Shown piece after piece: positions 1 to 57,424 of a stretch of DNA of 64,000 nt. Both the position numbers and the translations under genes were made by a program. Below the pieces are notes generated by a model, which worked only from the letters and a program-made list of their open reading frames with translations, made no database searches and had not been told where the DNA came from. Where the stretch lies: the NCBI GenBank assembly GCA_040400605.1, contig JBBAPZ010000001.1, positions 83,290 to 147,289 on the forward strand, in the 5' to 3' direction. This DNA is from Candidatus Sericytochromatia bacterium (GTDB lineage Bacteria; Cyanobacteriota; Sericytochromatia; S15B-MN24; JAQBPE01). The number at the start of each line of letters is the position of its first letter. Position 1 is the stretch's first letter.

Positions 1-1210
1 CTTGAATCTCAAGTAAGACACGCTCTTGCGCCTGGGTGAGCCGAAAAGGCAATAACTCTTTAAGCCGCAATACCCGTTCTCCCACCGTGGGCAGCCGCAA
101 TGCCTCACAGCGTGCCTGCGCCTGCGCCCGCTTGTAGGCCAATCCCAATTGCATCCACAGCAATTCATCAAAAGCCAGTCGGGTACGCGCCAGATCTTTC
201 AGCTCCAAACTGGTGGGAAAATGAATCAGCTCCAAGGCTTGCCGCAGAGGAACCAACTGCAAAGTCTCCCGGGTCGCAGCAGGCAAAGCGTCCCGCACCA
301 ACGGCAAAAAGCGATCCAGCGCGCCACGCAACGCCTGACGCACACTATTCGCGCTCAGCCCCTCCGTGAGATCATAAACGGGCACCAAACGCCCCACATG
401 CAAAGACGTGCCGCCCGATTCGTCCAACCCGCCCAATACTTCTGTCGCTGGACGGTCAAACACGATGCGCCCTGAAAAACTGTCGCGTTTGGGTTCGCCA
501 CTCAACAGCACCGACTGGCCCACCGGAAAGCGCGCCTTTTGGCGATCCAGCGCCACCTTGTTTCCCCGCTTGCCAAACCAGCGCGCTGCAACCGTTCCAG
601 TGCCATCCGTCAACCAAACGGTTAAAATGCTCATTTGGGCTTGACGGGGCGGGTTATACGCATCCACACGTTTGATCGTGCCCCAGATGGTGACCCGCAC
701 ACCTGCGCGAAGGTCACGAATGCGCACCCGTTGGCTGAAATCCAGGTAGGTTCGTGGATAATAACGCAACAAATCATCCACCGTGCGCACATTCAGGCGT
801 GCCAGACGTTCGGCCGTCTTTGGGCCCACGCCTGCGATCGCACCACCTGAACCCTTGCTGATGGCAAGTGGGCGATCGCGCCAATCCATGACGTCATCAC
901 GCGCAGGCTCATCCGTTTCGGAACTTGCCACCGTCAGCGACGCGATCCGTTCATTGAGCCACAAGTGCAAGGCTTGCACCGCTGCTGCGCGTTCAGTCAG
1001 ATTCAGGCTGCCGTATACGCGAAACTGCAACAGCAAGGACTCGGCACCGGGTAGGCCTCCTTGGAGCGCTTTTCCGAGTTCAGCAATCACAAAATCAGCG
1101 AAATGCGCCTGCTTGCCCTTTAGATTGGGGTAATGATGCCGGGCTTCGATACTCAGCGCGCGACGAAGGGTCTCATAATCAGGCGACGGTTGCGCAGGCA
1201 GCTTCGGCAA
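1..1210 (-). CDS. recG: ATP-dependent DNA helicase RecG, 5' part (runs off the window start)
   Basis: Not in the ORF track; translated by hand on the minus strand: PDYETLRRALSIEARHHYPNLKGKQAHFADF...IAGVGPKTAERLARLNVRTVDDLLRYYPRTYLD...LTQAQERVLLEIQ. These match RecG N-terminal, wedge and Q-motif segments. The TTG start at 1210 is tentative and overlaps the mnmA end. Confidence 0.9.
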   Translation of the reverse strand, partial: MPKLPAQPSPDYETLRRALSIEARHHYPNLKGKQAHFADFVIAELGKALQGGLPGAESLLLQFRVYGSLNLTERAAAVQALHLWLNERIASLTVASSETDEPARDDVMDWRDRPLAISKGSGGAIAGVGPKTAERLARLNVRTVDDLLRYYPRTYLDFSQRVRIRDLRAGVRVTIWGTIKRVDAYNPPRQAQMSILTVWLTDGTGTVAARWFGKRGNKVALDRQKARFPVGQSVLLSGEPKRDSFSGRIVFDRPATEVLGGLDESGGTSLHVGRLVPVYDLTEGLSANSVRQALRGALDRFLPLVRDALPAATRETLQLVPLRQALELIHFPTSLELKDLARTRLAFDELLWMQLGLAYKRAQAQARCEALRLPTVGERVLRLKELLPFRLTQAQERVLLEIQ

Positions 1211-2288
1211 CGCGACCGCTTTCTTTCGCAATCAACCCCCCACCCAATACCAGATCATCACGATACATCACCGCGACCTGCCCGGGTGTGATGGCATGCT
1301 GCGGTTCAAAAAAACGAACCAAGACACGATCGGGCGAATGACCACCCTCATCCTGCAATGCTTCAACAATGGCGCGCGCGGCCCGCGACTTGTAGCGAAT
1401 CTTGACCTCGGCTTCGATCGGTTCGTCGGGCCGCGCAATCGACACCCAATTCACGTTGTTAACCACCAACGTCGTGCCCATGGTGGCTTCACGCGGTCCG
1501 ACAATCACCCGGTTGTTGTCCGGATCGATACGAATCACATACAGGGGCGCTGCGTGGGCGATGCCGAGCCCGCGTCGCTGTCCAACGGTATAGTTGACGA
1601 TGCCTTCGTGACGCCCTAACACGTGGCCGTTGAGATCGACAATATCGCCTGGAACGATCCTTGAACCCAATTGCTCACGCAAAAAGCCTTGCGGATCCTC
1701 GCTGAAACACAAATCCTGGCTTTCCGGTTTTTCCGCCACAACAAAACCCAGGTCCCGGGCGATCGCCCGAACGGCAGGCTTTTCCATCTCCCCAACCGGG
1801 AAAATGCACCGCGCCAACTGCGCCTGCTTCAACCCGTAGAGCATGTACGTCTGATCCTTGTTGTGATCCAGCGCCATCCGCAACTCATAACGGCCAGATG
1901 CCTCACTAAAATTCACCCGCGCATAATGGCCCGTCGCGACGTGCTCCACCCCGAATTTGTGTTGCGCCATCTCAAACAATTCCAAAAACTTGAAATCACT
2001 GTTGCAAATGGCACAGGGATTGGGCGTCAAACCTTGCAGATACGATTCCGTGAAATTATCGACCACCTTCTTCTGAAAGGTCTCAACAAAGTCAAAGCGA
2101 TGAAAGGGTATCGCCAATTGTTCGGCCACATCTTTGGCATCACGCATCGCCTCATTGTTGCAACAACGCGAATTTGGCCAGATAACCATCGAAATGCCGA
2201 CAGCTTCATAACCATCTTGGCTCAACAAATACGCGGCAACGCTGCTGTCGACACCGCCACTCATCGCCATCGCTACCCGTTTAGTCAT
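1179..2288 (-). CDS. mnmA: tRNA 2-thiouridine(34) synthase
   Basis: AMSGGVDSSVAA PP-loop, TPNPC, ATGHYA, KDQTY, YTVGQRRGLG and ITPGQ motifs. Start taken at MTKRV. Confidence 0.97.
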   Translation of the reverse strand: MTKRVAMAMSGGVDSSVAAYLLSQDGYEAVGISMVIWPNSRCCNNEAMRDAKDVAEQLAIPFHRFDFVETFQKKVVDNFTESYLQGLTPNPCAICNSDFKFLELFEMAQHKFGVEHVATGHYARVNFSEASGRYELRMALDHNKDQTYMLYGLKQAQLARCIFPVGEMEKPAVRAIARDLGFVVAEKPESQDLCFSEDPQGFLREQLGSRIVPGDIVDLNGHVLGRHEGIVNYTVGQRRGLGIAHAAPLYVIRIDPDNNRVIVGPREATMGTTLVVNNVNWVSIARPDEPIEAEVKIRYKSRAARAIVEALQDEGGHSPDRVLVRFFEPQHAITPGQVAVMYRDDLVLGGGLIAKESGRVAEAACATVA

Positions 2289-2514
2289 GAATGCGAACCC
2301 CTTCTGCTTGGCTTGACGCCACACGATTGATCAATCTTAACGTGGATCGTGCCGGATGAAAAGCCTCCCAAATGCAGCAGTGGTGCCCAAAAAGCCCCTT
2401 AACCAGCGTCGTCGACGGGTGGGGTTCCAACCCTTGCAAAAGTGCCCTTGGCACGGTGTGTCTTCGCGATCGGCTGACCGGAACCTCGATGCACGCATTG
2501 CCACACCAAGTCGG

Positions 2515-4812
2515 TCACTCAATCTGGCCAAGCGCCTGACAGCGTTGGTTACGGGATACCCGCCAGTTAGTGTGGCGATCGCCCACGCCAAAATGACGCC
2601 CATCCGTTTCAATCAACACGGCACCATCCTCATCCGTGCGCTTCACGGCACACTTCAGCCGTGTCAGACGTGCCAGCACCGCGGAATGAGGATGCCCAAA
2701 GCGATTGCTCGCCCCAACACTGATGATGGCCACCGATGGCTTTAGCGCCTTTAAAAACCCCTCCCCCGAGCTCGTTTTACTGCCATGGTGCCCCACTTTC
2801 AGCACATCCACCGGGCGCAGTGTGCCCTGACGGATTAAACGCGCCTCCCCTTCGCGCTCAAGGTCCCCGGTCAACAAGGCGCGAAAACTTCCATATTCCG
2901 CCTCAACGACCAATGAACCATCATTGCTGGTTCGTGCGGACGGCGGGTGCGACAAGACCCGCAAACAGAGCCCGTCACGTTGCCAAAGATAATGTGGCGG
3001 GGGCAGGTAAAAAGGCACGCCGCGTAATAGCCAGTTTTGCAGCAGCAACTGTTGCGTATCGTCATTACTGGCCTGTCTGGCTTCCCACGCGGCTTCGATT
3101 GGCAACGCCGCACTCAAGGCACCCAGGCCGCCTGTGTGGTCTTTGTGCGCGTGTGTTGCAACCACCAATGCGATGCTGCGACACCTTTGCTGACGCAGAT
3201 ACGGCAGCACGATGTTTTTTCCCGCATCGTACCCGTCACCTTTGGGCCCACCATCCATGACAACCCACTCACCGTGTGGGGTTTCCAGTGCCAGGGCGTC
3301 ACCTTGTCCAACCGCCAGCACGTGTATCCGTAGCACGGGTGGATTGGGCGGCAGCCACGCAAGCCCATACCCGACGGCAGCGATGGTGCAACCAACCAGG
3401 CGCGCGTGCCCCTTAGCCAAAAAAGCCAGATACAGCCATGCCACGGTGGCGCCACTGAGACCCTGTATGGTGATCAATTGCCACGCTTGTTGTGCGCCCA
3501 GCCTGACCACGCCGATGAACGCCACGAGCACCCAATGGCTCACAACATTCAATGCGCCTGCAAGCAGGATACTGACATTGCCCAGTGCCGTCACAATAAA
3601 GCCCCATGGAGTGACAAGCCCGATGAGCGGTGCAACCAACCAGTTGATGGGCAAGGCAAGCAAGCTGAGATTGCCAAATAACAACGCCTGCCAAGGCGTG
3701 ACCCACAGCCACGCGCAAAAGGGGGTCAAGAAAATCGTCAGCCAACCAGGAGACGCGCGCCCGCGTTGCCACACCGCCAACCTTAACAAGCCATAAGTTG
3801 CAAGGACGCTGAACTGAAATCCCAAATCCTGAAGTGTCAACGGATTCCAGATCAGAATCGCTAGCACGCTTGTGTAAAATGCGGCAAATGGCACCGTCAA
3901 TCGGTTTGTGCCCAATGCAAACAGCGCAATGCCACCCATCAAGGTCGAGCGCACCATGCTGGCTGGCGCACCTGTCAACAACAGATAAACCGTCAACACC
4001 AGCAGACCCACAAGCACCCGCGACACCGGCGGGATTCTTAAGCGGGCCCCGCACCACCAGACGCTCGCAGCCAGCAAGCCAACCTGGGTGCCACTGGCTG
4101 CCAATGCGTGCGACAAGCCTGTGCTGCGAAAGTCCTCCGCGAGGTCGTCGGGTACGGCAATTGCGCCAGAACCCAGGATGAGTGAACCAAACAGTGCCGC
4201 TTCGTGGGATGGCAAGCCGGCCCCGATGATTGGTTGCAGGTGCACGCGCAGTTGATCGATTCTCCGCAAAACGCCCCATCCGGGTTCGACTCCGCTGTGA
4301 CGAGCCTCGCGCGCGTGAAGCGTACAATAGAGGCCCTGGCGTGCGAGGTAGGCGGCATAATCAAACGCCCCAGGGTTCATGGCAGGTTGTGGACGATTCA
4401 GGCTGCCGCTAACCGTGAAGCGATCGCCAACCATTGGCGGCTTGCCACCCGGAAACTGAACCCGCACGTATCCGGTCACCACACCCACGCGGCGTGCGGC
4501 GACACCGAGCACCCGCGCGTGGGTGACCCATTGTTCACCCTTTGCCGCCGCCGCAGTGGTTACAACCACTTGCATGGTGACATAGCGCCTGGGTGCGAAC
4601 CGCGCAACATCCGTTACAGGCTCTCGCGGTTGATTCACGCCCGTCCACCATGCGGCAAGCGCGATGGCTGTCAGGCCCCAATGCCATCCGCGCAGAGAAA
4701 CCCCGGTTGCAAGCCATACCGCGAGCAAGGGTAAGCACTCCCAGCCAATTTGCTGGCCGTACAAGCGTAAGTAAATGCCCAACGCCACACTTTGGGTCAC
4801 AAACGCTAACAT
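2515..4812 (-). CDS. comEC: DNA uptake channel ComEC/Rec2 (OB domain + competence domain + metallo-beta-lactamase fold)
   Basis: NPGAFDYAAYL, GLSHALAASG, LGFQFS, VGQGDA, THAHKDHTGG, LKVGHHGS and NRFGHPH motifs. Confidence 0.95.
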   Translation of the reverse strand: MLAFVTQSVALGIYLRLYGQQIGWECLPLLAVWLATGVSLRGWHWGLTAIALAAWWTGVNQPREPVTDVARFAPRRYVTMQVVVTTAAAAKGEQWVTHARVLGVAARRVGVVTGYVRVQFPGGKPPMVGDRFTVSGSLNRPQPAMNPGAFDYAAYLARQGLYCTLHAREARHSGVEPGWGVLRRIDQLRVHLQPIIGAGLPSHEAALFGSLILGSGAIAVPDDLAEDFRSTGLSHALAASGTQVGLLAASVWWCGARLRIPPVSRVLVGLLVLTVYLLLTGAPASMVRSTLMGGIALFALGTNRLTVPFAAFYTSVLAILIWNPLTLQDLGFQFSVLATYGLLRLAVWQRGRASPGWLTIFLTPFCAWLWVTPWQALLFGNLSLLALPINWLVAPLIGLVTPWGFIVTALGNVSILLAGALNVVSHWVLVAFIGVVRLGAQQAWQLITIQGLSGATVAWLYLAFLAKGHARLVGCTIAAVGYGLAWLPPNPPVLRIHVLAVGQGDALALETPHGEWVVMDGGPKGDGYDAGKNIVLPYLRQQRCRSIALVVATHAHKDHTGGLGALSAALPIEAAWEARQASNDDTQQLLLQNWLLRGVPFYLPPPHYLWQRDGLCLRVLSHPPSARTSNDGSLVVEAEYGSFRALLTGDLEREGEARLIRQGTLRPVDVLKVGHHGSKTSSGEGFLKALKPSVAIISVGASNRFGHPHSAVLARLTRLKCAVKRTDEDGAVLIETDGRHFGVGDRHTNWRVSRNQRCQALGQIE

Positions 4813-4820: not shown

Positions 4821-5378
4821 CTAGACCGTGAGCATCGGGCGCAAACGCTGCAGCCGCTTGGGACCAATGCCTGGCACTTCCTGCAGCTCATCGATCGATG
4901 AAAACCCACCGAGTTTTTGTCGGATCGCCATAATACGCCTGGCCATGTTTGGGCCGATGCCAGGCAACTGCTGGAGTACATCTGGCGACGCCTGGTTGAG
5001 GTTGATTTTGGCACCGGGCACCCCGCGTCTGCGATTGCCTCGACGTGCCTTGGTTGGTTTTGAGCGCACGTGGGGACTGACGCCCGTCAAACCCGCCGGC
5101 GCCGCACCGCGAATGGGGATGTAACAGCGTTCACCATCTTCGAGACGGCGAGCGAGGTTCATGGCTTGCAAGTCGGCGTTTCCGCGCGGGCCGCCCGCGC
5201 GTTGAATGAGTTCAGCGACCCTTGAGCCTGCACTTAAGCGATAAAGCCCGGGACGCGTCACGGCGCCTGTGGCTTGCACTTGAACGTGGGTTTCCGTGAT
5301 TGCACACGCGGCAAACGCTGCAGATGCAGGTGCCAATGACCCCCAAATTGCCACCATGACGCGAATCAGCAACACCAT
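4821..5378 (-). CDS. comEA: ComEA DNA-binding competence protein (SLBB + helix-hairpin-helix)
   Basis: GAVTRPGLY and NLARRLEDGE (SLBB); KINLNQA, LPGIGP and VPGIGPK (HhH); adjacent to comEC. ATG at 5378 follows GAGGGAGG. Confidence 0.93.
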   Translation of the reverse strand: MVLLIRVMVAIWGSLAPASAAFAACAITETHVQVQATGAVTRPGLYRLSAGSRVAELIQRAGGPRGNADLQAMNLARRLEDGERCYIPIRGAAPAGLTGVSPHVRSKPTKARRGNRRRGVPGAKINLNQASPDVLQQLPGIGPNMARRIMAIRQKLGGFSSIDELQEVPGIGPKRLQRLRPMLTV

Positions 5379-5566
5379 CTCACAACCCTCCCTTTCAATG
5401 ACGCCGACGTCATTTTCTTCGAGGGTGCGTAAGGTCTGGTTGCGCCAATTGGCGCGTGCCCGTTGCGAACGGCTCCCTGACACGCGACGGGAGCCTGCGA
5501 TGCTAAAACGCGTTGATTGGGCGAGAGCCTGACATCGTTGGGCGGGCGAGCTTTGGGGTGGTCTTT

Positions 5567-6859
5567 TTAGCCGTGGTGACTTTCATCAAGTGAATCCAGC
5601 CACAACGCCAGATGCATCAGGGTGGGGGCAGGTTCTGCTTGTCTGAGGCCGCGGCCAATCTGCATCAAACACGGGGGATTGGCGGTCAAGACGATGCTCG
5701 CTTGGGTCGCTTGGATGTGTTGCAGTTTGTGTGTGAGCAACTTGTCGGAACGCTCGGCCTGCAACAGGGTGTAACTGCCCGCGCCCCCGCAGCACCAGTC
5801 GGCTTCGACCAATTCGACAAATTCCACGTTCGGCACTTGGCGAATGATCGCGCGGGGCGCTTCTTTGACCTTGAGGCCGTGCACCAAATGACAGGGATCG
5901 TGCCATGTCACCCGAACAGGCGGCTGGTTTGGGGCAGCCGTCGGCCACTGGATGTCACTTTGAGCGATTAGCGATGAAAAATCAACGACTTTGGCGGTGA
6001 ATTGCCGGGCACGTTCGGCCCACTCGGGGTCATCCGCCAACAAGCTGGCGTATTCGTGCAAGGTGGCGCTGCAGCCACCGGAATGACTGACGATATGGTC
6101 GAGCGGAAAACGTTTCAGAACCGCAAGGTTGTCCCGGGCCAGCGCGCGCGCGCCTTGGCGATCGCCATCGTGTAAATGGATCGCACCGCAGCAACCCTGC
6201 ATCGGGGGCACCCACACCCGAAAGCCAGCCTTAGACAATACCCGCACGGTCGCTGCATCCACATCCCCAAAAAAAACAGGCATCGCACAGCCGTTCATCA
6301 GTGCAACAGTTCCTTTTTCGACACCTTGGGCCGGTGTCCATTCAGGCACAGGCACGCGCTTAGGCTTTGGTGGCAGCAATTCGAGCAGTCTTTTGGCCAC
6401 CTCTGGCAGCCAAGCGGCCGCAAAGCCTCGTTTAACCAACACGCGCGCGGCCCATAAACCGGGCAAAACAGCCACTTTTAGCCGGTTGCGGTACGGCAGG
6501 ATGTGACGCAAAAGCGATCGCCAAAATAACCGACGTGCACCGGGCGGCCGTTGGGGTTCAACAAAACGTTCCCGTGCCATTTCAAGTAACGTGCCATACT
6601 GCACCCCGGCGGGGCACGCCGTTTCACACGCCCGACAGCCGACACAACTGTCCAACTGTGCCGTGGTGCCATCATTGGGGTCCAGTCGACCTTCCGCCAA
6701 GGCCCGTATGCCATAGATCCGCCCACGGGGCGATTCTCCTTCTTTCAGCGATTCGCGGTAGGTCGGACAATGCTCCAAACAGAGTCCACAGTGAATGCAA
6801 TCATCATATAGATTGGCAAGGCCAGCCAACGCTGCTGGCGTGTCATCGGTGTCACGCAC
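5567..6859 (-). CDS. glcF: Glycolate oxidase-type Fe-S subunit
   Basis: Two CxxCxxCxxxCP ferredoxin motifs, ESPRGR, and two CCG domains (CCGA, HDPCHL, CCGGAG). Confidence 0.92.
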   Translation of the reverse strand: MRDTDDTPAALAGLANLYDDCIHCGLCLEHCPTYRESLKEGESPRGRIYGIRALAEGRLDPNDGTTAQLDSCVGCRACETACPAGVQYGTLLEMARERFVEPQRPPGARRLFWRSLLRHILPYRNRLKVAVLPGLWAARVLVKRGFAAAWLPEVAKRLLELLPPKPKRVPVPEWTPAQGVEKGTVALMNGCAMPVFFGDVDAATVRVLSKAGFRVWVPPMQGCCGAIHLHDGDRQGARALARDNLAVLKRFPLDHIVSHSGGCSATLHEYASLLADDPEWAERARQFTAKVVDFSSLIAQSDIQWPTAAPNQPPVRVTWHDPCHLVHGLKVKEAPRAIIRQVPNVEFVELVEADWCCGGAGSYTLLQAERSDKLLTHKLQHIQATQASIVLTANPPCLMQIGRGLRQAEPAPTLMHLALWLDSLDESHHG

Positions 6860-6864
6860 CCTTT

Positions 6865-8097
6865 TTAACCTCCTGCCGTACGCCCCGGATTGAGCACCAA
6901 TCGCGGATCAAACTGTTGCTTGATTTGCCGCATCAGGCCTTGGGCGGGTTTTGGCTCACCCCATACTGAACCAAGCCCCGATTTCCAGTCTCCGGGTGCA
7001 CGTTCAAGCACCCAGTTGCCGCCAAGATCGCGCGTCATCTGTTTGACCTCGTCAATTCCTGCACGAACGGATTCCAGCCGATTGGCCCGCCACACTGTGC
7101 GAACCACACCCGCACCGACATCAGCCAAAACACCAACAGGACGTGTCGTTGCCATTTGCGTGATCCAATCCGCCAACACCGACACATCACCCGGACGCAC
7201 CATCACTTTCAGAACACCATCACCACGCCGCCGGGCTTGCATTGTTTGCTGGATCACCAAACGTGCATCATCTTGCTCATAATGGTCGATGGCCACGTGA
7301 GGAATGTGACGAGCCAAAGCCAAAACTTGCTCCACCTGCCATTGCGTCGCCTCTTGCACACCGGCAAACCCAACCAGCAACACCCACGGCCCTACACCAA
7401 ACGGTTCATCCCAAGCAGGATCCCCTTTCACGAGACTGAGCACAGCCGGCTCCAAATCGCCCGTTACCAGGGTTTGGGCGATGGTGCGCGCGTTGTCCGC
7501 CTCAAGCAAACCAATCGCGATCAACCGAACAGACGCCGGTTTGGGCTGCAAGCGCACACAGACAGCGCTCAATACACCCAGTGCACCCAAGGAACCGGTA
7601 TAGAGCCTCGGCAAATCATAACCGGCCACGTTTTTAACAACCTGCGCACCGCCTTCGATGCGCCGTCCATCACTGCTTAAGGTTTCACACCACAAAATCG
7701 CATCGCGTGCCGTGCCATAGCGCATGCGCCAAGGGCCTGCTGCACCTGTGGCAATCGCACCACCAAGCGTTGCGCGCTCCGGTTCTTCCGTATCCAATGG
7801 CAAACACTGCCCATGCTTTCCCACAAGTTCGTTGACTTCCGCCAAGGTCACACCCACCTGTGCGGTGAGGGTCAATTCTTCCGGCCGAAAGGCCAACACC
7901 CCTTTCAAGAGGGTCAGGTCCAACGCCACATCATAACGGGTCAGGCGATCGCCCCAATCCTGATGCGTGCCGCCACCCCACGGCACCACCGCCTCGCCGC
8001 GTGCGTGGGCGTGACGCAACACCTCCAGTGCCTCCGCCACCTGTTGGACCTGCACGGCATGAGTTGGCGAACGCCCATCAAGCTGATAATCACGCAT
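6865..8097 (-). CDS. glcE: Glycolate oxidase-type FAD-binding subunit
   Basis: ATLGGAIATG, VVKNVAGYDL, GSLGALG and KQQFDP..LNPGR; lies between glcD and glcF. Confidence 0.9.
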   Translation of the reverse strand: MRDYQLDGRSPTHAVQVQQVAEALEVLRHAHARGEAVVPWGGGTHQDWGDRLTRYDVALDLTLLKGVLAFRPEELTLTAQVGVTLAEVNELVGKHGQCLPLDTEEPERATLGGAIATGAAGPWRMRYGTARDAILWCETLSSDGRRIEGGAQVVKNVAGYDLPRLYTGSLGALGVLSAVCVRLQPKPASVRLIAIGLLEADNARTIAQTLVTGDLEPAVLSLVKGDPAWDEPFGVGPWVLLVGFAGVQEATQWQVEQVLALARHIPHVAIDHYEQDDARLVIQQTMQARRRGDGVLKVMVRPGDVSVLADWITQMATTRPVGVLADVGAGVVRTVWRANRLESVRAGIDEVKQMTRDLGGNWVLERAPGDWKSGLGSVWGEPKPAQGLMRQIKQQFDPRLVLNPGRTAGG

Positions 8098-9749: not shown

Positions 9750-10152
9750 GCACACAGAACCAAGCGCAGACCATCGACTTGGTGGCTTTCAGCACGGGTG
9801 CTATCGTCAGTCGTTATTACTGCTAATTCTGGGCTGTCTTCGCCGCACGGCCCATCTTGTCACCATCGCCGCGCCCTATCACGGCACCTTGGCCGGTTTC
9901 TTCGTCAAAGGACCGGCACCGCGCGAGATCCGCACCGGCATTCAGTTTATGGCGCAACTCAACGAAGGCGCTGGTATTTTACGGCGCATTCCTTGCACGT
10001 CTTTGTGGGCCCCTTTTGATGGTGTGATCCTGCCTGCGAGTTCGAGCGTGGTACCGTGGGCACACAATCAAACCTTTTGTGCGCCCACACACGCAGACAT
10101 GCTGGGCGATCGCGATGTTCAGGCCTCCGTGGCTGCAGCATTGCGACGCTGA
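9750..10152 (+). pseudogene. Frameshifted, 5'-truncated alpha/beta-hydrolase (lipase/esterase) remnant
   Basis: One frame gives IDLVAFSTGAIVSRYY then a stop at 9826. The adjacent frame continues LGCLRRTAHLVTIAAPYHGT...FDGVILPASSS...THADML. Together these supply the nucleophile elbow, Asp and His. Confidence 0.75.
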
Positions 10153-19565: not shown

Positions 19566-19601
19566 CATGGTTGTGATGGTCGCGATAACTAAGGGGCTGA
19601 C

Positions 19602-20402: not shown

Positions 20403-20527
20403 TCTATGATGCAAACACGAAGGCAATCAGCAGACCGTCCGACGGTTGGTGCTGATTGCTGATCGCCATCGCTTCCATTGTCCCTGTCACTTCAGACCTT
20501 GCACGCCATTTTTACGGAGGATTGGTC

Positions 20528-20797: not shown

Positions 20798-20842
20798 GAC
20801 ACTGCTTCACCAAGGCAACGTGGGTATGACCGGGAAAGACGA

Positions 20843-25260: not shown

Positions 25261-25268
25261 CCGTTCCT

Positions 25269-26944: not shown

Positions 26945-26966
26945 ACCAAGTACCCCGTTGCCCCAA

Positions 26967-42046: not shown

Positions 42047-44497
42047 TCACTGTACACCGCCGCTTGATGGCGCAAGTAGCCAGGTGCGGGTGCGCTGCCA
42101 TGTTTCAAGGCGCTGGGTGGCCCGTTTAAGCTGGGTATTCATGGTGCTGTCATCGAAAGTCTCAAGCAGGGAACCCGGTCGGGGATAGACCTGCAAGACC
42201 GTCAAATCGGGGTTGAGCGCCGCTGTCTGCATCGCGTCCTGGATGGCGGTTTCGAGTCCACCCGGGCGATCGACAAGACCGATATCGAGTGCTCGCGTGC
42301 CTGACCAAACACGCCCTTGCGCGAGCTGATCCACACGGTTGACCGACATCCGACGCCCCTGTGCCACCCGCTCCAGGAATTGGCCGTAGGTATAGCGCGC
42401 ACCTTCACGCAACAAATCGAGTTCCTGATCCGTCATCGGACGCAGGCCGCTCTGATAATCCGCATGAGCCCCTTGGTTCAGGGTTTCGGTCGTGATAAAC
42501 AATTTGTCCAGTAGCCCCTTGAAAACAAACTGACCCGTGAACACCCCGATGGAACCCGTGATAGTGCCAGGCTCCGCATAGATACGAACGCCGTTCGCTG
42601 CCACCCAGTACCCGCCGGATGCCGCCACGTCCCCCATCGACACGATCACAGGCTTGTTTTGCAAGCGCAGCAGATCCAGCTCCCGGCCAATCTCATCAGC
42701 CGCCACCGCATCCCCACCCGGGCTGTCTACACGCAACACCACCGCCTTGATGCGATCATCTTGCCGTATCTCGCGCAGCGCCCGGGTGACTGTTGCGGAA
42801 CCCGCGCTGCGACCAGTTAATAAATCCTGGTCGGAACCCTCACCGCGCGTGATGTCCCCATCAATTCTGACCACGGCAACAATATCCGCTTCACCCCACG
42901 TGTCGGGCTTCACGACATCCAAGCCATAATTGAAAGCAGGGCCTTTCGCCAGATATTCGGGCACCTGATCCGGATACATGATGGCATCGATCAGACTCTT
43001 GTCTTTGGCCGCCGGCGGTGTCCAAATTCCACGGTTGATGAGTGCGATCACCTCCTCGCGACTCAAGCGCCGCGAACTGGCAATGCCCATAACCATTTGC
43101 TCGAATTGATCCGCAAGTAACGCTTGATCCTGCTCTTTGGCAGTCTGCGAGAGATCCTTCCGCGTAAACTGCTCCGGAGCGGACTTGTATTTGCCAATGG
43201 CGACAAATTGCGGCTGAACGCCCAACTTCTCCAACACCCCTTTAAAAAATGGAATGGTGGTGCTTAACCCGGTGATGCTCAAGCTGCCGCCGGGGTGCAG
43301 GATGATGCGTTCACAGGCACTGGCCAGGTAGTATTCGCCCAAATCCGGGTCCGTGATGTAGGCAGCGGTCGTTTTACCCGCGGCACGGAAAGCTGCGATC
43401 GCTTCTCGCAATTCCTGCAAACGCCCGACACCCAGGGTGACGCCGCGCAAGTCAAGAATCATCCCGGTGATCAGCGGATCATCCTTTGCCTGCGCAATGC
43501 GGCGTGTGGTATGCAACACGCCGGGATATACCAAACTGCGCAGGTCGAGCAATCCCCCGCCTTGAGCACCCAAATCACCCTCAAGGCGCACATAGGCCAA
43601 ATGGGGTATCCCCAATTGAAGCGAACGTTTCGCCGTCCAGTCCGAGCTGGTGACGTACATCAAATCGCTGGAACCAATCCGACCGGTTGGCGTCGCAGCC
43701 ATCATGCCAGCGCCCAGTTGACCGAACTGTGTCCCGACGCCCAAGCTGATGCGGCCTTTGGGATCGGCCATGCCACGCAAAGTCAGCCCCGGAATGATTT
43801 CGCCTTGCAATCCTAGCCACACATCAACTGTGTCGGCAGCCGCACCTTCTTCCCAAGCAGCATCCAATGATACCAGGATGCGCCGGGTTCCCGGTGCGAT
43901 CGCCACGCCACCGCGATACCGTCGCTTTAATGTCGCCACGTCAAGCCCGAGTCCTGTACCCTCAATGCGCCGCCCCACCGCCGCCTGATTCAGGTGGTTA
44001 ACAACCAGACCTGCAGAAAACCACGGGGATGGACGGTAACTCATCGATAGCCCGAGGTCTGCGGCATTGCCGCCTTGGGCGTCCAGAAACTGCATCAGGC
44101 CAAAACTGCCGCCAAGTGCCAGGCCATTAAATGGCGTCCACGCTCCTCCGAACAGATATTGATTCAAAAAACGATCCTGGGGTGTGCGAAATTGCTGCCA
44201 GGCGGAACCACCACCGCCACCCGTAAACAAGGCATGCGTGGCATCGTTGCCATTCAGCGAACGACTCAAAAAGATTTCGGAACTACGTTGAAAGCCCATG
44301 GCCGCTGGGTTGATAGCCAATGCCGACGCATCCTCAACCGTCGCAACCGAGCTCAATGAACCCAACTCACTGGGCAAAAAACTGCCGTAGGGCGTGGATG
44401 CCTGAACTGGCGCCGCCACCACCCCAAGGGCTGTCACAAGCGTCGGCAGTCCACGCACAACCCGCCTCAGGTGCCCCATTCCGGAATCTTTGACCAT
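42047..44497 (-). CDS. sppA: Signal peptide peptidase SppA (tandem S49) with ~300-aa N-terminal putative beta-barrel
   Basis: YYLAS, GKYKSA, RVDSPGG, AASGGY, TGSIGV and QGRVW; the N-terminus has a signal peptide, INPAAMG and amphipathic strands. Confidence 0.9.
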   Translation of the reverse strand: MVKDSGMGHLRRVVRGLPTLVTALGVVAAPVQASTPYGSFLPSELGSLSSVATVEDASALAINPAAMGFQRSSEIFLSRSLNGNDATHALFTGGGGGSAWQQFRTPQDRFLNQYLFGGAWTPFNGLALGGSFGLMQFLDAQGGNAADLGLSMSYRPSPWFSAGLVVNHLNQAAVGRRIEGTGLGLDVATLKRRYRGGVAIAPGTRRILVSLDAAWEEGAAADTVDVWLGLQGEIIPGLTLRGMADPKGRISLGVGTQFGQLGAGMMAATPTGRIGSSDLMYVTSSDWTAKRSLQLGIPHLAYVRLEGDLGAQGGGLLDLRSLVYPGVLHTTRRIAQAKDDPLITGMILDLRGVTLGVGRLQELREAIAAFRAAGKTTAAYITDPDLGEYYLASACERIILHPGGSLSITGLSTTIPFFKGVLEKLGVQPQFVAIGKYKSAPEQFTRKDLSQTAKEQDQALLADQFEQMVMGIASSRRLSREEVIALINRGIWTPPAAKDKSLIDAIMYPDQVPEYLAKGPAFNYGLDVVKPDTWGEADIVAVVRIDGDITRGEGSDQDLLTGRSAGSATVTRALREIRQDDRIKAVVLRVDSPGGDAVAADEIGRELDLLRLQNKPVIVSMGDVAASGGYWVAANGVRIYAEPGTITGSIGVFTGQFVFKGLLDKLFITTETLNQGAHADYQSGLRPMTDQELDLLREGARYTYGQFLERVAQGRRMSVNRVDQLAQGRVWSGTRALDIGLVDRPGGLETAIQDAMQTAALNPDLTVLQVYPRPGSLLETFDDSTMNTQLKRATQRLETWQRTRTWLLAPSSGGVQ

Positions 44498-45904: not shown

Positions 45905-47161
45905 ATGGCGTTGATTGTACAAAAATTCGGTGGGACTTCGGTCGGGGACCCTGAACGCATCAAACATGTGGCGCGACGAATTGCAGCTGTCAAGGCGGCA
46001 GGGCATCAGGTGGTGGTGGTGGTGTCGGCAATGGGGCACACCACGGATGAGTTGATCGAACTGATGGGCAAGGTCACAGATTATGCTTCACCCCGCGAGG
46101 TTGACATGTTGCTTTCGACCGGCGAGCAGGTATCGATCGCATTGGTTACGATGGCCTTGCAGGCGCAGGGGGTGCCGGCGCTGTCGATGACGGGGGCTCA
46201 GGCGGGCATGCGCACGGAACCGGTCCATAGCCGCGCGCGCATCGTGGACATTCATACGGATCGCCTCAAACAGGTGCTCGCGGATGACTACATCCCGGTG
46301 GTCGCTGGTTTTCAAGGGGTAACTTACAGTGGGGAAATCTGTACATTGGGCCGGGGCGGCTCGGATACGACGGCCGTGGCGATCGCCGCGGCGCTGCGTG
46401 CAGACGAATGTGAAATCTACACTGACGTCTCTGGGGTCTATACGACGGATCCCCGCGTCGTCACCGACGCACGTTTGCTTACGGAAATTTCCTATGATGA
46501 AATGCTCGAACTGGCCAGTCTGGGTGCGCAGGTCCTGCACCCGCGTTCCGTGGAGTACGCCAAACAGTATCGCTTGAATTTAAGGGTGCGATCAACCTTT
46601 AATGAAGGTGCCGGCACCTTGGTGAAAGGAGTGCAAGACTTGGAGAATCAAACCCCTGTGCGCGGCGTGGCTGCGGATCTGAACCAGGCCAAGGTGGCAT
46701 TGATGGATGTGCCGGATCAACCAGGTGTCGCGGCTCGGCTCTTCTCGGCACTCTCCGAGCACGGCGTCAACGTGGATATGATCACTCAAGCCGTACGCGG
46801 CGAACAAAAAAATGACATTGGCTTCACGGTGGCGAAAAGTGAACTTGACCAAGCGGTCCAGGTCACCGAAGAAGTCGGTCGTCAGGTCGGCGCCTCCGGC
46901 GTGGTTCAAGACCCGGACGTTGCGAAGGTATCTATCGTAGGTTCAGGTATGGTGAACCATGCGGGCATCGCTGCGCGGATGTTTCAAGCCTTGGCAGATG
47001 GCAATATCAATATTCAGATGATCGCCACATCCGAGATCAAGGTGTCCGCGATTATCAGCCGAAACCAGGCACAACAGGCCCTGCGCCTGATTCACAACGC
47101 CTTTCACCTTGCCGGCGCCGCACCTGCCGTCGAAGCGATATCATCTGAGGTTAAGTTTTAA
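45905..47161 (+). CDS. lysC: Aspartate kinase with two ACT domains
   Basis: MALIVQKFGGTSV, VVSAMG, TLGRGGSD, YTDV and TSEIKVS; AAGGAG RBS. Confidence 0.97.
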   Translation: MALIVQKFGGTSVGDPERIKHVARRIAAVKAAGHQVVVVVSAMGHTTDELIELMGKVTDYASPREVDMLLSTGEQVSIALVTMALQAQGVPALSMTGAQAGMRTEPVHSRARIVDIHTDRLKQVLADDYIPVVAGFQGVTYSGEICTLGRGGSDTTAVAIAAALRADECEIYTDVSGVYTTDPRVVTDARLLTEISYDEMLELASLGAQVLHPRSVEYAKQYRLNLRVRSTFNEGAGTLVKGVQDLENQTPVRGVAADLNQAKVALMDVPDQPGVAARLFSALSEHGVNVDMITQAVRGEQKNDIGFTVAKSELDQAVQVTEEVGRQVGASGVVQDPDVAKVSIVGSGMVNHAGIAARMFQALADGNINIQMIATSEIKVSAIISRNQAQQALRLIHNAFHLAGAAPAVEAISSEVKF

Positions 47162-50491: not shown

Positions 50492-52360
50492 TCAGGGCCA
50501 CAGGGCCCCAAGCAGGGCCACTGCAACACCGACCAGACTTTCGCCTGCGATGAGTCCCGAGCTGACAGGAATCAGGTAACGTGTTGCGCTCAAGGTGTGG
50601 CGCTTTTCCCAGATGCGTGCGATGCAGGCGCCAAGGAACATCGAAATCGCATTTGTTCCCGGGATGACCATGGAAAGACCAAGCCCCATCGAGGACGGGA
50701 CAAACGCGCGTGCTTTTTGTGGCAGTGCCGCTTCAAGCAAGGGCAAGGCAGCGCCAACCAAACCTCCGATAAGGATGGCGGCCTGAGCCGTCGGGTGCAG
50801 GCTGTCCAGTCCGTTTCCGAGCAGTTTGGCAACGCTGGCCCACACCATGGCGGCAGGCGCGGGGTATTTATCACTGCCTAACACGCTAGCATCGGGGACG
50901 AGCAGGTAGAAGGCTGGAACCACGACGGCGGTGCCGACAAAGATGCCGGCAAACTGCGCGAGAAACTGCTTGCGCGGGTTCGCGCCAAGCAAATAGCCAC
51001 TTTTGAGATCAGTCAGCAGATCAGCCGCAGAACCGGCGGCCCCGGCTGTGATGCAGGCAGTCATCAAATTGGCGACCGTATTGGCGGGTGCCAGCACGCC
51101 GTAAGTTAACTGGGTGATTTTTCCCATCGCGCCAATTGGGGTTGTATCCGTCTCACCGGTGGCCCGACAGGCAACGAGCGCCAGAAAAAAGGTCAGGGCA
51201 ACCGCAATCAGACTCATGACCGGACCAACCTGGAAAGCAAAGTGCATCACTGCCATGACGCCGAGCGATGCGATCGCCGTTCCCGCCCAAAACCAGCTGT
51301 TTGGCACTTCGATGGCTTGCAGGGGATCATCACCGAAAGCATCCGGGCCTTTGGTCGGACGAAGCGCCCGCAAGATGGTTTTCCATTGCAGCCCGAAACC
51401 AACCAGGCCGGAACTGACCATCAAGGCGGATCCACCCCAAAGCGTCCATTTGCGAACCGCCTCAGGTTCCGGGATAGCGCCTGGGAAATGCTGCCAGACA
51501 TAGGGGCCTACCACCCCATAGGTCAGGACCGCACCCAAGAGCATGCTCCACCCTGTGCGCCAACCCATCAGGGCCCCGGCTGCGATCATGATGCTCGAAT
51601 TTTCAAAGGTGAAAGTCCATTTCGCGAGCGGTTGACCCGCAATCTTGAAGACCTCCGGGTAGTGGAACTCGGTCGGAATGGCCGGCCAACTGGCTTTGAA
51701 ATGGGTATTGGCCCACGCCATGCCATCTTTCAGACTGGCGATCGCTGCCCCGACGCCCATGGCCAAAAACAACGATCGCGCCTGTAAAACCGCCTCTGCG
51801 CCTTTGGCGTGTAAACTTTGCAACGTCGTTGCGGCAGCGACCCCGGAGGGGAAACGCAACTGTTCGCGGTTAATCATCTGCCGCTTCATCGGTATCGCCA
51901 TCATCACACCCAACATGGCCAGAAAAAAAGTCCACGCGACCAGGGTCCAAAATGGCATATGATGCCCCGTCACCATCAAGTAGGCCGCAATGGCTGACAC
52001 CATTGTGCCTCCGGTCGAATAACCCGCCGACGAAGCCGTTGACTGCATCGCATTGTTCTCAAGAATCGACATCTCACCCTTGACGACGCCAATCCGGCTT
52101 AAACTGGTCCAAATGGCATAGCTCAATATACAGGCGGTGATCGCGACCCCCAAGCCCCAACCCGTTTTGAGTCCCACGTAAAGATTCGACAAGGACATCA
52201 CTGCGCCCAATACACTGCCCATCACGACCGAACGCACGGTCAACTGCGGCATCGAATCACCGCGGTAAACGTCACGGTACCAACGGTACTCCCGCTCTTC
52301 CGGCGTCAATGCTTCAGACTCGGTTCCAGGGACCGCCTGTGGGAGAGTGGGCGTAGACAT
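50492..52360 (-). CDS. OPT-family oligopeptide transporter
   Basis: QLTVRS, NLYVGLKTG, LENNAMQS, LRFPSG, DLKSGYLLG, PAPAA and SGLIAGES. Confidence 0.95.
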   Translation of the reverse strand: MSTPTLPQAVPGTESEALTPEEREYRWYRDVYRGDSMPQLTVRSVVMGSVLGAVMSLSNLYVGLKTGWGLGVAITACILSYAIWTSLSRIGVVKGEMSILENNAMQSTASSAGYSTGGTMVSAIAAYLMVTGHHMPFWTLVAWTFFLAMLGVMMAIPMKRQMINREQLRFPSGVAAATTLQSLHAKGAEAVLQARSLFLAMGVGAAIASLKDGMAWANTHFKASWPAIPTEFHYPEVFKIAGQPLAKWTFTFENSSIMIAAGALMGWRTGWSMLLGAVLTYGVVGPYVWQHFPGAIPEPEAVRKWTLWGGSALMVSSGLVGFGLQWKTILRALRPTKGPDAFGDDPLQAIEVPNSWFWAGTAIASLGVMAVMHFAFQVGPVMSLIAVALTFFLALVACRATGETDTTPIGAMGKITQLTYGVLAPANTVANLMTACITAGAAGSAADLLTDLKSGYLLGANPRKQFLAQFAGIFVGTAVVVPAFYLLVPDASVLGSDKYPAPAAMVWASVAKLLGNGLDSLHPTAQAAILIGGLVGAALPLLEAALPQKARAFVPSSMGLGLSMVIPGTNAISMFLGACIARIWEKRHTLSATRYLIPVSSGLIAGESLVGVAVALLGALWP

Positions 52361-53017: not shown

Positions 53018-54310
53018 ATGTCACCAGAAAACGACACACCCAGGAATACTGAAACACCCCTGACGCTGGGCTTTCTGGTTTTGGTGTGCAGCGGTTTGTG
53101 GCTGGTTGAAACGCTCAACGACGGCGTGAGACTTTTGGCCTGTTTGATTATCGTGATAGCGGGTGTTTACGTCATTGGCGCTCAGCGGACCAAGCAACGG
53201 TTGATGGGTGAGAACGACACCTACCGACGCTGGTTAGTGTCGTTGCATGCAACGAGTGGGCGCATTTCGGCCAAAATGGAGTTGGGCGAAACATTGCGTG
53301 CGATCGCAGAAGGTTTGCCAAACCTGATTCCACACGACGAGTGCATGATATTGCTGTTGGAACCACGAACCAATCTCTTGACACTTAAGTCGATCCCCAG
53401 GAACGGCAGGCCCTTGGTCCAATCCACAATCCGTGCCGGTCGTTCCCGTTCGGGTTTGCCGCTGGCCGAACTGAAGATTGCCGCCGATTACGGACTTTTT
53501 AGACGCATAACGGAGACGAAACAAGCTGTATTACTGAATGATTTGGACCAGGTATCATACGAACCAGGCATTCTGGCAGGCTATCGTTCTTTTTTGGGCA
53601 GTCCGCTTGTGAGTGAACAGGAGCTCCTTGGCGTCCTGGTCTTGCTTGGTGAACATTCGGGCAGCTTCAACGCAGATCACGAACACCTGTTGAATGTTGT
53701 GGCAGCTCAGTCAGCAACGGCCATCAAGAATGCACAGTTGTACCGTGTCAGCCAACAAATGGCGTTTACCGATGGACTGACAAAAGTTTTCAATCGTCGA
53801 TTTTTTGAGGATCAATTGCATATGGAGGTGACACGGGGCCGCCGTTATCACCATACAACGTCGCTCATGATGATCGATGTGGACTTCTTTAAGCGCTTTA
53901 ATGACACTTACGGCCATCCAATAGGAGACGACGTCTTAAGAATGATTGGAAAGACACTTGGCGCAAGCACCCGTGAGACTGACATTGTCGCACGCTATGG
54001 GGGGGAAGAATTCGTCGTGATTCTACCTGAAACCGGCATCGAGACGGCCATTGATGTGGCTGAACGCATACGAAAAAATGTTATGGCTCAGCATATTGCC
54101 GGCCCCGACAATGAGGCGTTGGGTGTTACCATCAGCATCGGTGTGGCCTCGGATCACGGAGAAGAAGCCAGCCATGCAGCTTTGATTGAGGCAGCCGATG
54201 CGTGCTTGCATCAATCCAAACAGATGGGTCGCAATCGTGTGGTGGCACAGGCGCAACCGCCTCGGACGCCCGATGTGGCGCCGAGTCAAACCATGCTCTC
54301 GCACGAATGA
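53018..54310 (+). CDS. Membrane-anchored GAF-GGDEF diguanylate cyclase
   Basis: Two N-terminal TM helices, GAF domain, DGLT..NRR, DVDFFKRFND.YGH, RETD I-site and RYGGEEF. Confidence 0.95.
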   Translation: MSPENDTPRNTETPLTLGFLVLVCSGLWLVETLNDGVRLLACLIIVIAGVYVIGAQRTKQRLMGENDTYRRWLVSLHATSGRISAKMELGETLRAIAEGLPNLIPHDECMILLLEPRTNLLTLKSIPRNGRPLVQSTIRAGRSRSGLPLAELKIAADYGLFRRITETKQAVLLNDLDQVSYEPGILAGYRSFLGSPLVSEQELLGVLVLLGEHSGSFNADHEHLLNVVAAQSATAIKNAQLYRVSQQMAFTDGLTKVFNRRFFEDQLHMEVTRGRRYHHTTSLMMIDVDFFKRFNDTYGHPIGDDVLRMIGKTLGASTRETDIVARYGGEEFVVILPETGIETAIDVAERIRKNVMAQHIAGPDNEALGVTISIGVASDHGEEASHAALIEAADACLHQSKQMGRNRVVAQAQPPRTPDVAPSQTMLSHE

Positions 54311-54883: not shown

Positions 54884-54892
54884 AAGAAAAGT

Positions 54893-55209: not shown

Positions 55210-55211
55210 GA

Positions 55212-56008: not shown

Positions 56009-56428
56009 ATGCCGATGAATTTGATGTTTTTGTTTGTCGCGATCGCTGGCGTCTTGATAGGCGTGTTGCTCATGGTTGGCGTGGTTGTCGTTAAGCGGGC
56101 AAGGCGTCTTGAGAAACGTGAGCGTCTGATTCGGTTGGCATCGGTTGCTGCTGCTGATGAGTCGGGTGCGGCGCTTGTCGCGTTGCTTGATGCCGTGGCG
56201 CACGAAAAAGACGACTGTCCGGTCAAGGTGAGGTGGGTTTTTCATAACAGTGCTCGTAATCCCGTGCCATCCGTGTTGATCACCATCACCTGGGATGGCA
56301 ACGAATGGCGCCGGGTTAGCCCGATAGCGGTGCTATATAAAAACCTCGAATCAGTGCTATCCGACGGGCAGAGCCACTTGGCGCGTCAGTTTCGCGAGGA
56401 TCTGCAGGCCTATGCGGCCGCACCGTGA
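56009..56428 (+). CDS. Hypothetical membrane-anchored protein
   Basis: N-terminal TM helix followed by a basic stretch; GAGG RBS. Confidence 0.7.
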   Translation: MPMNLMFLFVAIAGVLIGVLLMVGVVVVKRARRLEKRERLIRLASVAAADESGAALVALLDAVAHEKDDCPVKVRWVFHNSARNPVPSVLITITWDGNEWRRVSPIAVLYKNLESVLSDGQSHLARQFREDLQAYAAAP

Positions 56429-56431
56429 TGC

Positions 56432-57424
56432 TCAGACGTCAATCTCGCCTGCAAGCGACAGATGGAAGGTCTTGCGCACCTTGTCAACATCGCCGGGATA
56501 CTGACCAAGCAAAAACATGAGTTTGACCACCGTTGCCTCGATGGTCATATCGCGTGCTGAGACAGCCCCCGCTTCACCTGCGCGGCGCGCACTTTCGTAA
56601 AGGTCCAAATCAACCGTGCCGCCCATCGCCTGGGAGTTTAAAACTATCAGCTTGCCTTTTTGGGTCGCTTCCTCGATGAAACCAAGGAGGCTGTTTTCGT
56701 GTATCGGGACATTACCAGAGCCAAACGCCTCGATGACAATGGCGCTGATCGCCGTATCCAGCAATGGCATCCAGTGTTGCGGATTCATACCGGGAAACGG
56801 TCGCAAAACCAAAACGCGATCAGAAAAATCCATATCCAGTCGAAACAACCCGCTTGGCCGACGCAAAAGTTCATCGCGAATGCGGATGTGAAGCCCCACT
56901 TCCGCCAGCGGCGGAAAATTGGGCGATGCGAAGGCATCATAGTCGTGAATGCTGACTTTCTTCGCCCGATTGCCACGAAACAAGCGATGGTTAAAAAAAA
57001 GTCCAACCTCCGGAATCGCCTGACATGCCAGTTCGAGTGCATTGACCAGATTCGCCTTTGCGTCTGTGCGAATCACCGCAATCGGGCGTTGTGCCCCGGT
57101 CAGAATGACCGGCTTGGGAAGATTGGCCAACATGTACGACAGCGCAGCCGCTGTGTACGCCATCGTATCTGTGCCGTGAATTACCACAAAGCCATCATAA
57201 TGATCCAACGTCAAGGCGATCGCCTCGGCGATCGCACACCAATGTGCTACTTGCAAGTTCGCGCTGTCCTCGCTGAACAGCACCCGCGTATCAATCTCCG
57301 CCAGTTTCAAGGCCTCCGGAATGAAGCGAAACACCTCCGCCCCATCCGAGCAGGCACGCATGCCATCCGTCCGAGGCACCATCCCCAAAGTGCCTCCGGT
57401 ATGCAAGAGCAAGAGCTTTTTCAT
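56432..57424 (-). CDS. ansA: L-asparaginase type I
   Basis: HTGGTLGM, HGTDTMAY, TGAQ, FASPN and FGSGN. Confidence 0.95.
   Translation of the reverse strand: MKKLLLLHTGGTLGMVPRTDGMRACSDGAEVFRFIPEALKLAEIDTRVLFSEDSANLQVAHWCAIAEAIALTLDHYDGFVVIHGTDTMAYTAAALSYMLANLPKPVILTGAQRPIAVIRTDAKANLVNALELACQAIPEVGLFFNHRLFRGNRAKKVSIHDYDAFASPNFPPLAEVGLHIRIRDELLRRPSGLFRLDMDFSDRVLVLRPFPGMNPQHWMPLLDTAISAIVIEAFGSGNVPIHENSLLGFIEEATQKGKLIVLNSQAMGGTVDLDLYESARRAGEAGAVSARDMTIEATVVKLMFLLGQYPGDVDKVRKTFHLSLAGEIDV

Follow-up and report, generated by a model that had tools for sequence, protein, structure and literature searches.

A HIP1-type octamer in the genome of a non-photosynthetic member of the Cyanobacteriota

The octamer GCGATCGC occurs 30 times in the window analysed here, a 64,000-nucleotide stretch (G000:C1:83290-147289) of the genome labelled G000, and 1,554 times (418/Mb) in the genome as a whole, where it is the commonest 8-mer. 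Judged from its sequence, density and conservation, this word is HIP1 (short for highly iterated palindrome 1), known from cyanobacteria, and judged from its apparently non-photosynthetic host, a missing C5 methylase and a missing near-match pattern it is a variant of HIP1. The assembly comprises 3.71 Mb in 174 contigs with 55.9% GC and is 94.55% complete and 4.91% contaminated. The first-pass annotation of the window had listed the word by position and codon frame, and the list was reproduced in full: the word is present at 30 of 30 positions, there are no further copies, and the sites are read as Ala-Ile-Ala (17), x-Asp-Arg (9) and x-Arg-Ser (4), where sites 15683 and 15725 were assigned by hand to the open reading frame (ORF) at 14100-15752 and site 10106 lies in a weakly called ORF. 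Dinucleotide shuffles of the window (n = 100) contained a mean of 2.45 copies and a maximum of 6. An Rfam scan of the window detected two tRNAs only, so that the sites belong to no RNA family. The GCGATCGC sites of the window, some of which occur in the extended form GGCGATCGCC, are as follows.

834-841, Ala-Ile-Ala
872-879, x-Asp-Arg
1759-1766, in mnmA, as GGCGATCGCC, Ala-Ile-Ala
2575-2582, in comEC, as GGCGATCGCC, x-Asp-Arg
4420-4427, in comEC, x-Asp-Arg
6158-6165, as GGCGATCGCC, x-Asp-Arg
6514-6521, x-Arg-Ser
7945-7952, as GGCGATCGCC, x-Asp-Arg
10106-10113, in the weakly called ORF
15683-15690, in a peptide-binding protein gene, x-Arg-Ser
15725-15732, in the peptide-binding protein gene, x-Arg-Ser
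16222-16229, as GGCGATCGCC, x-Arg-Ser
19047-19054, in rny, Ala-Ile-Ala
19206-19213, in rny, Ala-Ile-Ala
20666-20673, in spoVS, Ala-Ile-Ala
23906-23913, in the pil operon, as GGCGATCGCC, x-Asp-Arg
25515-25522, in pilN, as GGCGATCGCC, x-Asp-Arg
28430-28437, Ala-Ile-Ala
29129-29136, as GGCGATCGCC, Ala-Ile-Ala
36075-36082, in gyrA, x-Asp-Arg
39949-39956, Ala-Ile-Ala
43395-43402, Ala-Ile-Ala
43896-43903, Ala-Ile-Ala
46379-46386, as GGCGATCGCC, Ala-Ile-Ala
51270-51277, Ala-Ile-Ala
51738-51745, Ala-Ile-Ala
53300-53307, Ala-Ile-Ala
56039-56046, Ala-Ile-Ala
57216-57223, as GGCGATCGCC, Ala-Ile-Ala
57228-57235, Ala-Ile-Ala

The enrichment is upheld genome-wide against both Markov models and codon-preserving shuffles. 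The observed/expected (O/E) ratios for Markov orders 0-6 are 18.2, 11.7, 6.6, 8.1, 4.7, 2.0 and 1.15, the values near 1 at the top orders arising because the model is fed by the sub-words of the motif itself (7-mers at order 6). The next palindromic octamer has an O/E of 3.1 on 25 sites (order 2). The same-composition palindrome CCGATCGG, which together with the Markov models replaced the backwards-read pattern as a control because the latter contains CTAG, occurs 71 times. GATC is not enriched (0.77), and CGATCG is enriched 1.37-fold, with half of its copies located within GCGATCGC. Coding sequences (3,016 genes, called with a purpose-built hexamer model) contain 1,412 copies versus 347 ± 14 in 20 synonymous-codon shuffles (∼4-fold); the observed and shuffled counts for the three codon frames are 804/264, 435/75 and 173/9 (3- to 19-fold), and intergenic DNA contains 143 copies versus 27 expected (5-fold). 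Ala-Ile-Ala and Gly-Asp-Arg are the two most over-represented tripeptides of the proteome; the motif has thus shaped the proteome, which makes the codon shuffle conservative. Flanking GG..CC, giving GGCGATCGCC, is found at 31% of the sites versus 13.5% in shuffles. Three contigs of the bin (C20, C24 and C27), each of them from a phage that may or may not infect this host, contain no copies versus ∼66 expected. C20 (L274-L276; 61.7 kb, with DNA polymerase, primase, terminase, portal and a DarB-like protein) also contains no GATC; C24 and C27 have normal GATC.

Conservation was assessed in alignments of coding sequence from three pairs of congeners within the order of G000 (G019/G021, G011/G009 and G021/G025, with G021 used twice; G000 has no congener in the set). 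GCGATCGC was kept at 45 of 79 sites versus 18.7 expected from codon-level substitution rates (2.4-fold), which ranks it second among 1,408 8-mers, the first being the overlapping word CGATCGCC. Single-mismatch variants were kept at 78 of 300 sites versus 74.4 expected, and same-composition permutations gave a ratio of 1.03. The word is all-or-none, its single-mismatch variants being kept no more often than expected. Selection and biased repair could both explain this conservation. Another candidate, CCAACGCC, seemed conserved in a first test (63 sites) and was dropped when it fell outside the top 15 in the refined test.

The best named matches of the glycyl-tRNA synthetase (GlyRS) and Dam of G000 are from Sericytochromatia, a class of Cyanobacteriota without photosystems, in which the genome can be placed on these matches and on its gene content. 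Small-subunit rRNA is absent from the assembly and allows no 16S placement. No type II reaction centre was detected in G000 at its 94.55% completeness, and PsaA/B were found in none of G000, G001, G011 and G013, with the cyanobacterial control G081 positive; G081 is the single one of the HIP1-rich genomes of the same phylum that was examined for PsaA/B. The earlier statement that this is not an oxygenic cyanobacterium thus stands, as do the window genes on which it drew:

18012-22339, rny, ymdB-type phosphoesterase and spoVS (plus strand) and dimeric GlyRS (minus strand), used for genome placement

We take the order of G000 to be S15B-MN24. An order of that name is one of three Sericytochromatia orders in PMC11853062.

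The Sericytochromatia set comprised 47 genomes, 27 in the order of G000 and 20 in other orders. All 19 members of families f1-f3 have a ratio of GCGATCGC to CCGATCGG between 6 and 22; the ratio is 7.8 in G024, 4.5 in G014 and G020, 3.1 in G016 and 1.0-1.5 throughout genus g9 (four genomes), so that 22 of the 27 genomes of the order are enriched (ratio of at least 4.5). The enrichment is uneven, with values over a local order-2 model of 3.5-5.4 in G007, G008 and those f3 genomes that were sampled and 1.5-2.5 in G002-G006, G014 and G016. The other orders, represented in the count of both words by 16 of 20 genomes (four that were less than 80% complete were excluded), have ratios of 0-3.0 and at most 79 sites/Mb. 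The third class of the phylum, probably Vampirovibrionia to judge by where it falls in the phylum sample, shows no enrichment in 201 genomes (maximum 132 sites/Mb; 0.7-2.5-fold over the local order-2 model in the four densest). Of 50 genomes obtained via GlyRS loci, 45 formed the outgroup set, after removal of three that resemble Sericytochromatia, one that probably belongs to the order and an unpublished one (G453); few are near 56% GC and none are proteobacteria. These 45 genomes reach 340 sites/Mb at high GC with a median O/E of 0.95 and a maximum of 2.1, whereas the same method gives 4.0-8.7 for G000 (116 chunks). None of the three outcomes named beforehand as counting against the enrichment (an O/E near 1, enrichment in unrelated genomes or an ordinary oxygenic cyanobacterium as host) was encountered. 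Mild enrichment of CGAGCTCG, CGACGTCG or CGTCGACG was seen in high-GC outgroup loci (L087, L093, L098, L110, L130, L131, L137 and L138) and probably reflects codon use. In G027 (L285, 20 kb, 66% GC) CTCGAG is absent and TCGA is low, against 230-1,600/Mb in similar genomes, probably owing to restriction-site avoidance.

Among oxygenic cyanobacteria, HIP1 is reported to be absent from Gloeobacterales and Thermostichales, with seven later losses (PMC13756078). Since these two groups, the remaining Sericytochromatia orders and the third class all lack the word, a single origin at the base of the phylum requires at least four further losses, and two gains or a transfer take fewer steps. The first-pass annotation had offered an origin before oxygenic photosynthesis or a parallel one; parallel gain or transfer is the more parsimonious, and the earlier date was not borne out. 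Because losses are common, a shared ancient origin is nevertheless a serious, if not the favoured, possibility. No published report of HIP1 in Sericytochromatia or Melainabacteria was found, with thin coverage of subscription papers, and the study of Delaye and Moya (2011), cited in PMC13756078, is older than these genomes. The non-photosynthetic classes are not named in the available text of PMC13756078.

Compared with cyanobacterial HIP1 (Elhai, 2015, PMC4390886; Xu et al., 2018, PMC5861425; Rodriguez-Cruz et al., 2026, PMC13756078), G000 has the same word as its top 8-mer, in all frames and in intergenic DNA and accompanied by a Dam-family gene, and in its order the word is conserved beyond control words. 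Cyanobacterial HIP1 is reported at 300-2,700/Mb with 15- to 300-fold enrichment; G000, with 418/Mb and an order-0 O/E of 18 versus the typical 55-228, lies at the low end, in the range that Elhai calls 'weak HIP1', and its 31% of sites with the GG..CC extension compares with 27-88% in Elhai's strains (PMC4390886). The two differ in that the class of G000 is non-photosynthetic, no counterpart of DmtC or of N4-methylcytosine (m4C) modification was found in G000, variants at positions 1 and 8 are not over-represented and the central AT is not protected. Single-mismatch variants are not conserved in the order of G000, whereas Xu et al. report their conservation (PMC5861425). The lack of DmtC has a precedent in HIP1-rich cyanobacteria without a recognizable CGATCG methylase (S. 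elongatus PCC 7942/6301, Pseudanabaena PCC 7367 as well as Geitlerinema PCC 7407; PMC4390886), but these are scattered, very dense exceptions, whereas in the order of G000 the lack is the rule.

We tentatively favour the reading that GCGATCGC acts as a self tag through which DNA is channelled into recombination, in break repair and natural transformation, and that it may be read in the manner of Chi by a split AdnAB-like helicase-nuclease. DNA ends would be unwound and degraded until a tag is reached; tagged DNA would be protected and passed to recombination and untagged DNA destroyed. The advantage of tagged DNA would select for the word, drive its spread and hold it near one copy per 2.4 kb except under the strongest coding constraint. 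Some protein presumably recognizes the whole 8-mer with a preference for GG..CC flanks. The observed part of this picture consists of the enrichment in every frame and in intergenic DNA, the conservation, the sharpness of the 8-mer, its absence from the three phage contigs, the gene inventory (a conserved Dam-family gene, and no DmtC-like enzyme found) and the co-occurrence with the candidate reader; the tagging itself is inferred.

The candidate reader is a four-gene module at G000:C4:179454-186538 (L423; see also L265) that encodes a helicase, a PD-(D/E)XK nuclease, a helicase-like protein and RecJ. All four genes are present in HIP1-rich G011, where the helicase is full length (38%, 342 bits). 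Among HIP1-poor genomes, G010 (the member of genus g9 examined), G028 and G365 gave partial, generic matches of at most 97 bits, and the small cyanobacterium G119 gave none, so that the presence of the helicase matched HIP1 status in six of six genomes. The helicase family contains 283 representatives at E < 1e-30, and its metagenomic members were surveyed in the best 80 of 529 loci. The top locus (L424) is HIP1-rich, with 18 GCGATCGC versus 2.5 expected. The second-best locus (L425) contains GGGATCCC, a published alternative HIP (PMC4390886), 25 times in 18.7 kb and its sister in the tree (L462) 17 times in 10 kb, a density close to that given by Elhai for hot-spring Synechococcus. Enriched palindromes find no support as a general trait of helicase carriers. 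A separate 22 kb metagenomic locus (L472) contains, beside a family member, GGCCGGCC 13 times, dispersed, versus 3.0 in shuffles, possibly a HIP-like word of another lineage.

Experiments in cyanobacteria may bear on such a reader. In PCC 7002, unmethylated homologous HIP1 boosts integration up to 7-fold; the gain is independent of methylation, depends on homology and survives deletion of addAB (a plasmid-borne copy), leaving other complexes open (Kamoku and Nielsen, 10.1101/2024.09.10.611283). In S. elongatus, uvrD, cas4, recJcy and a PD-(D/E)XK gene limit the maintenance of foreign plasmids, and their loss helps (Taton et al., PMC10653904). The HIP1-free marine picocyanobacteria have recBCD (Cassier-Chauvat et al., PMC5101192; PMC4390886). 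No published link of HIP1 to Cas4, UvrD or AdnAB was found in the available texts. Like Chi (E. coli GCTGGTGG and B. subtilis AGCGG; PMC5101192), GCGATCGC is a short, exact, genome-wide word, and its tie to a helicase-nuclease and to the sorting of self from non-self is a predicted one. Chi is polar, and GCGATCGC is not the polar, strand-skewed word that Chi would lead one to expect; the candidate enzyme of G000 also has its motor, motor-like, PD-(D/E)XK nuclease and RecJ components in separate genes, unlike RecBCD and AddAB. A bolder version, which we think unlikely as it stands, would give HIP1 the role of Chi for a split AdnAB-like module of helicase, nuclease and RecJ that is common to Sericytochromatia and oxygenic cyanobacteria and older than oxygenic photosynthesis, with a word that can drift (to GGGATCCC in hot-spring strains) and that decays wherever the module disappears or RecBCD takes its place.

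Natural transformation is touched by genus g9 (G010, G012, G018 and G022), which has 39-50 GCGATCGC/Mb, below expectation, and keeps ComEA, ComEC, PilQ and Dam. The distance of its proteins to other-order sequences, relative to the rest of the order, is 1.45-fold for ComEA (three sequences) and 1.38-fold for ComEC (four), and PilQ (0.92) and MnmA (1.06) are not accelerated. The ComEC HxHxDH motif is lost in four of four g9 genomes; among the other members it is intact in 14, altered in two and not covered in three. In G010 the Competence domain alone of ComEC scores. The nuclease of the ComEC domain is reported to matter for transformation in B. subtilis (PMC8579336). Degeneration of ComEA and ComEC thus appears, suggestively, to be tied to loss of the word in g9. 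An alternative HIP in g9 (CTCGAG/CCTCGAGG) was dismissed, as it is equally high in HIP1-bearing G013, G014 and G020.

A number of observations weigh against the self-tag reading and its candidate reader. HIP1-rich G013 also lacks the HxHxDH motif, the Dam branch of g9 is long as well (1.43), loss of the word is one event in one lineage, and the HIP1-poor orders retain ComEA, ComEC and PilQ. The six-genome match is small and includes no HIP1-rich cyanobacterium. Only one of the 80 helicase loci is significant for GCGATCGC, the other 79 having a pooled 35 versus 48 expected; an enriched palindromic 8-mer is found in four of 37 long helicase loci versus eight of 56 control loci, a set from which the probable member of the order and G453 were again excluded; the branch that unites the HIP1 and GGGATCCC helicases has a support of 0.43; and no helicase was found in the one supplement of PMC13756078 that was searched. 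None of the known Chi sites is a palindrome or is methylated, whereas GCGATCGC is a perfect palindrome with a GATC core. Finally, biased repair could conserve sites too.

DNA uptake sequences, as in Neisseria and Pasteurellaceae, show a halo of near-matches. If GCGATCGC were one, it would be read at the surface or in the periplasm by the type IV pilus, ComEA and ComEC, and biased uptake would raise its copy number; we consider this rather unlikely. The window encodes the machinery, as the first-pass annotation had said:

2515-4812, minus strand, comEC, with DUF4131, Competence and metallo-beta-lactamase domains and an intact HxHxDH motif
4821-5483, minus strand, comEA, with SLBB and helix-hairpin-helix regions
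22431-27974, minus strand, prepilin peptidase, pilM, pilN, pilO, an unassigned ORF and the pilQ secretin

Besides this intact machinery, the decay of ComEA and ComEC in g9 and the correlation of pilus genes and ComEA with HIP1 in cyanobacteria (PMC13756078) favour uptake, and uptake sequences share with GCGATCGC an over-represented word, competence genes and an influence on tripeptide use. Methylated RAATTY serves as the uptake sequence of Campylobacter jejuni (10.1101/2024.09.10.611283). However, competence genes are not specific to HIP1-rich genomes, and their presence in the window is therefore uninformative: ComEC is found in 43, ComEA in 46 and PilQ in 46 of the 47 genomes of the class, relatives without the word included, and PilQ is unaltered in g9. 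The position-independent effect in PCC 7002 requires DmtC methylation (10.1101/2024.09.10.611283), for which no enzyme was found in G000, and GCGATCGC has no halo of near-matches.

A structural mark, bound by a nucleoid or chromosome-organizing protein as has been proposed for periodic cyanobacterial HIP1, seems improbable to us. It would agree with the conservation of the word, with its even spread over the host contigs and with the 10-90 kb periodicity reported in cyanobacteria (PMC5861425); the contigs of G000 (at most 273 kb) give access to neighbour spacing and not to periodicity of that range. This spacing is, however, Poisson-like (coefficient of variation 1.02, n = 1,365), and the longest gaps lie at translation and ATP synthase operons, the five examined covering ribosomal-protein, ATP synthase, infB/nusA, pnp, gatAB and ftsY regions. 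The most codon-biased decile of genes (reference of five genes) has 354 GCGATCGC/Mb versus 417-604 elsewhere.

Equally improbable is a functionless by-product of biased repair, in which a methylation ratchet, either the G-meC model of Elhai or a Dam-based analogue, makes and restores the word. Such a process would conserve sites, MutS- and MutL-like motifs are present in G000, and a Dam-family gene is found in 42 of the 47 genomes of the class, including HIP1-poor ones. That of G000 is a single gene with DpnM as its closest solved structure (E 1.7e-73) and a GATC specificity predicted from homology; a quick Dam tree with long branches does not resolve its grouping with cyanobacterial Dam. Dam was discarded as the HIP1 switch, since HIP1-poor genomes retain it with its hairpin residues unchanged, and it was not found in G014 and G020, both of which bear the word. 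The search proposed earlier for Dam-like and CGATCG methyltransferases thus succeeded for the former and yielded no CGATCG-specific enzyme. C5 methylases (PF00145) had no match in the 94.55% complete G000 or in 14 of the 19 f1-f3 genomes. The DmtC query was the C5 family common to three HIP1-rich cyanobacteria (L145, L150 and L161), taken to be DmtC from that sharing; tblastn with it matched nothing in G000, the C5 genes of the order included nothing close to it, and a search of G011, G013, G010 and G028, run without a positive control, found no match either. For the SPPY-type cyanobacterial enzymes, too, G000 has no orthologue. The possibility that PF01555 genes include a CGATCG methylase of the whole order was likewise rejected, the G000:C19 enzyme being confined to f1 and the HPPY type to f3 and the HIP1-free genus g9. 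According to Elhai (PMC4390886), a CGATCG methylase should make variants at positions 1 and 8 over-represented. These variants have an O/E of 0.74-0.97 in G000 and five relatives, against 5.0 in cyanobacterial loci (69 counts in 163 kb of nine genomes, pooled across GC). With flat variants at these positions and no C5 methylase found, the ratchet does not fit the order of G000, and the link to CGATCG methylation drawn in the first-pass annotation is not upheld.

Three methylase genes deserve mention in their own right. G000:C19:15330-16805 (L004) is a Mod-like DPPY methylase with 60-63% identity in six of the seven other f1 genomes (five compared directly); an HPPY-type methylase (L209, L211-L216 and L223) is kept in f3 and the HIP1-free genus and is absent from G000; and at G000:C4:24535-25778 (L003) a beta-class methylase adjoins a PDDEXK_11 nuclease as a small restriction-modification-like pair.

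That the word is a compositional artefact of GC-rich codon and amino-acid use is refuted for G000 and hardly credible overall, although it may explain the weakest members: unrelated genomes of 65-74% GC reach 130-340 sites/Mb, G002, G003, G005, G006, G014 and G016 are merely 1.5-2.4-fold over the local order-2 model and Ala-Ile-Ala accounts for 57% of coding sites, but the excess of G000 over codon shuffles in every frame, its intergenic excess, the rarity of CCGATCGG and the flat O/E of the 45 unrelated genomes all contradict it.

Further genes lie near the end of the window. An ORF with only the C-terminal region of FlhA (FHIPEP), followed by a small MshEN-type c-di-GMP-binding protein, occupies 60267-62038, and 62096-63178 encodes a short UvrC-like protein of 360 amino acids that matches only the model's N-terminal portion.

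For 30 years neither the function nor the origin of HIP1 has been settled, and the HIP1 surveys cited here cover oxygenic strains only. With a second, non-photosynthetic clade, photosynthesis no longer counts among the requirements for HIP1, nor, on the evidence of these genomes, does DmtC. The new gain and loss provide a comparative filter for HIP1 genes: those common to HIP1-rich Sericytochromatia and cyanobacteria and missing in g9, the sister orders and Vampirovibrionia should form a short candidate list, and one candidate, the helicase module, passes a small version of this filter. If the Chi-equivalent reading is true, HIP1 would have its reader identified three decades on, and methylation by DmtC would be a later add-on.

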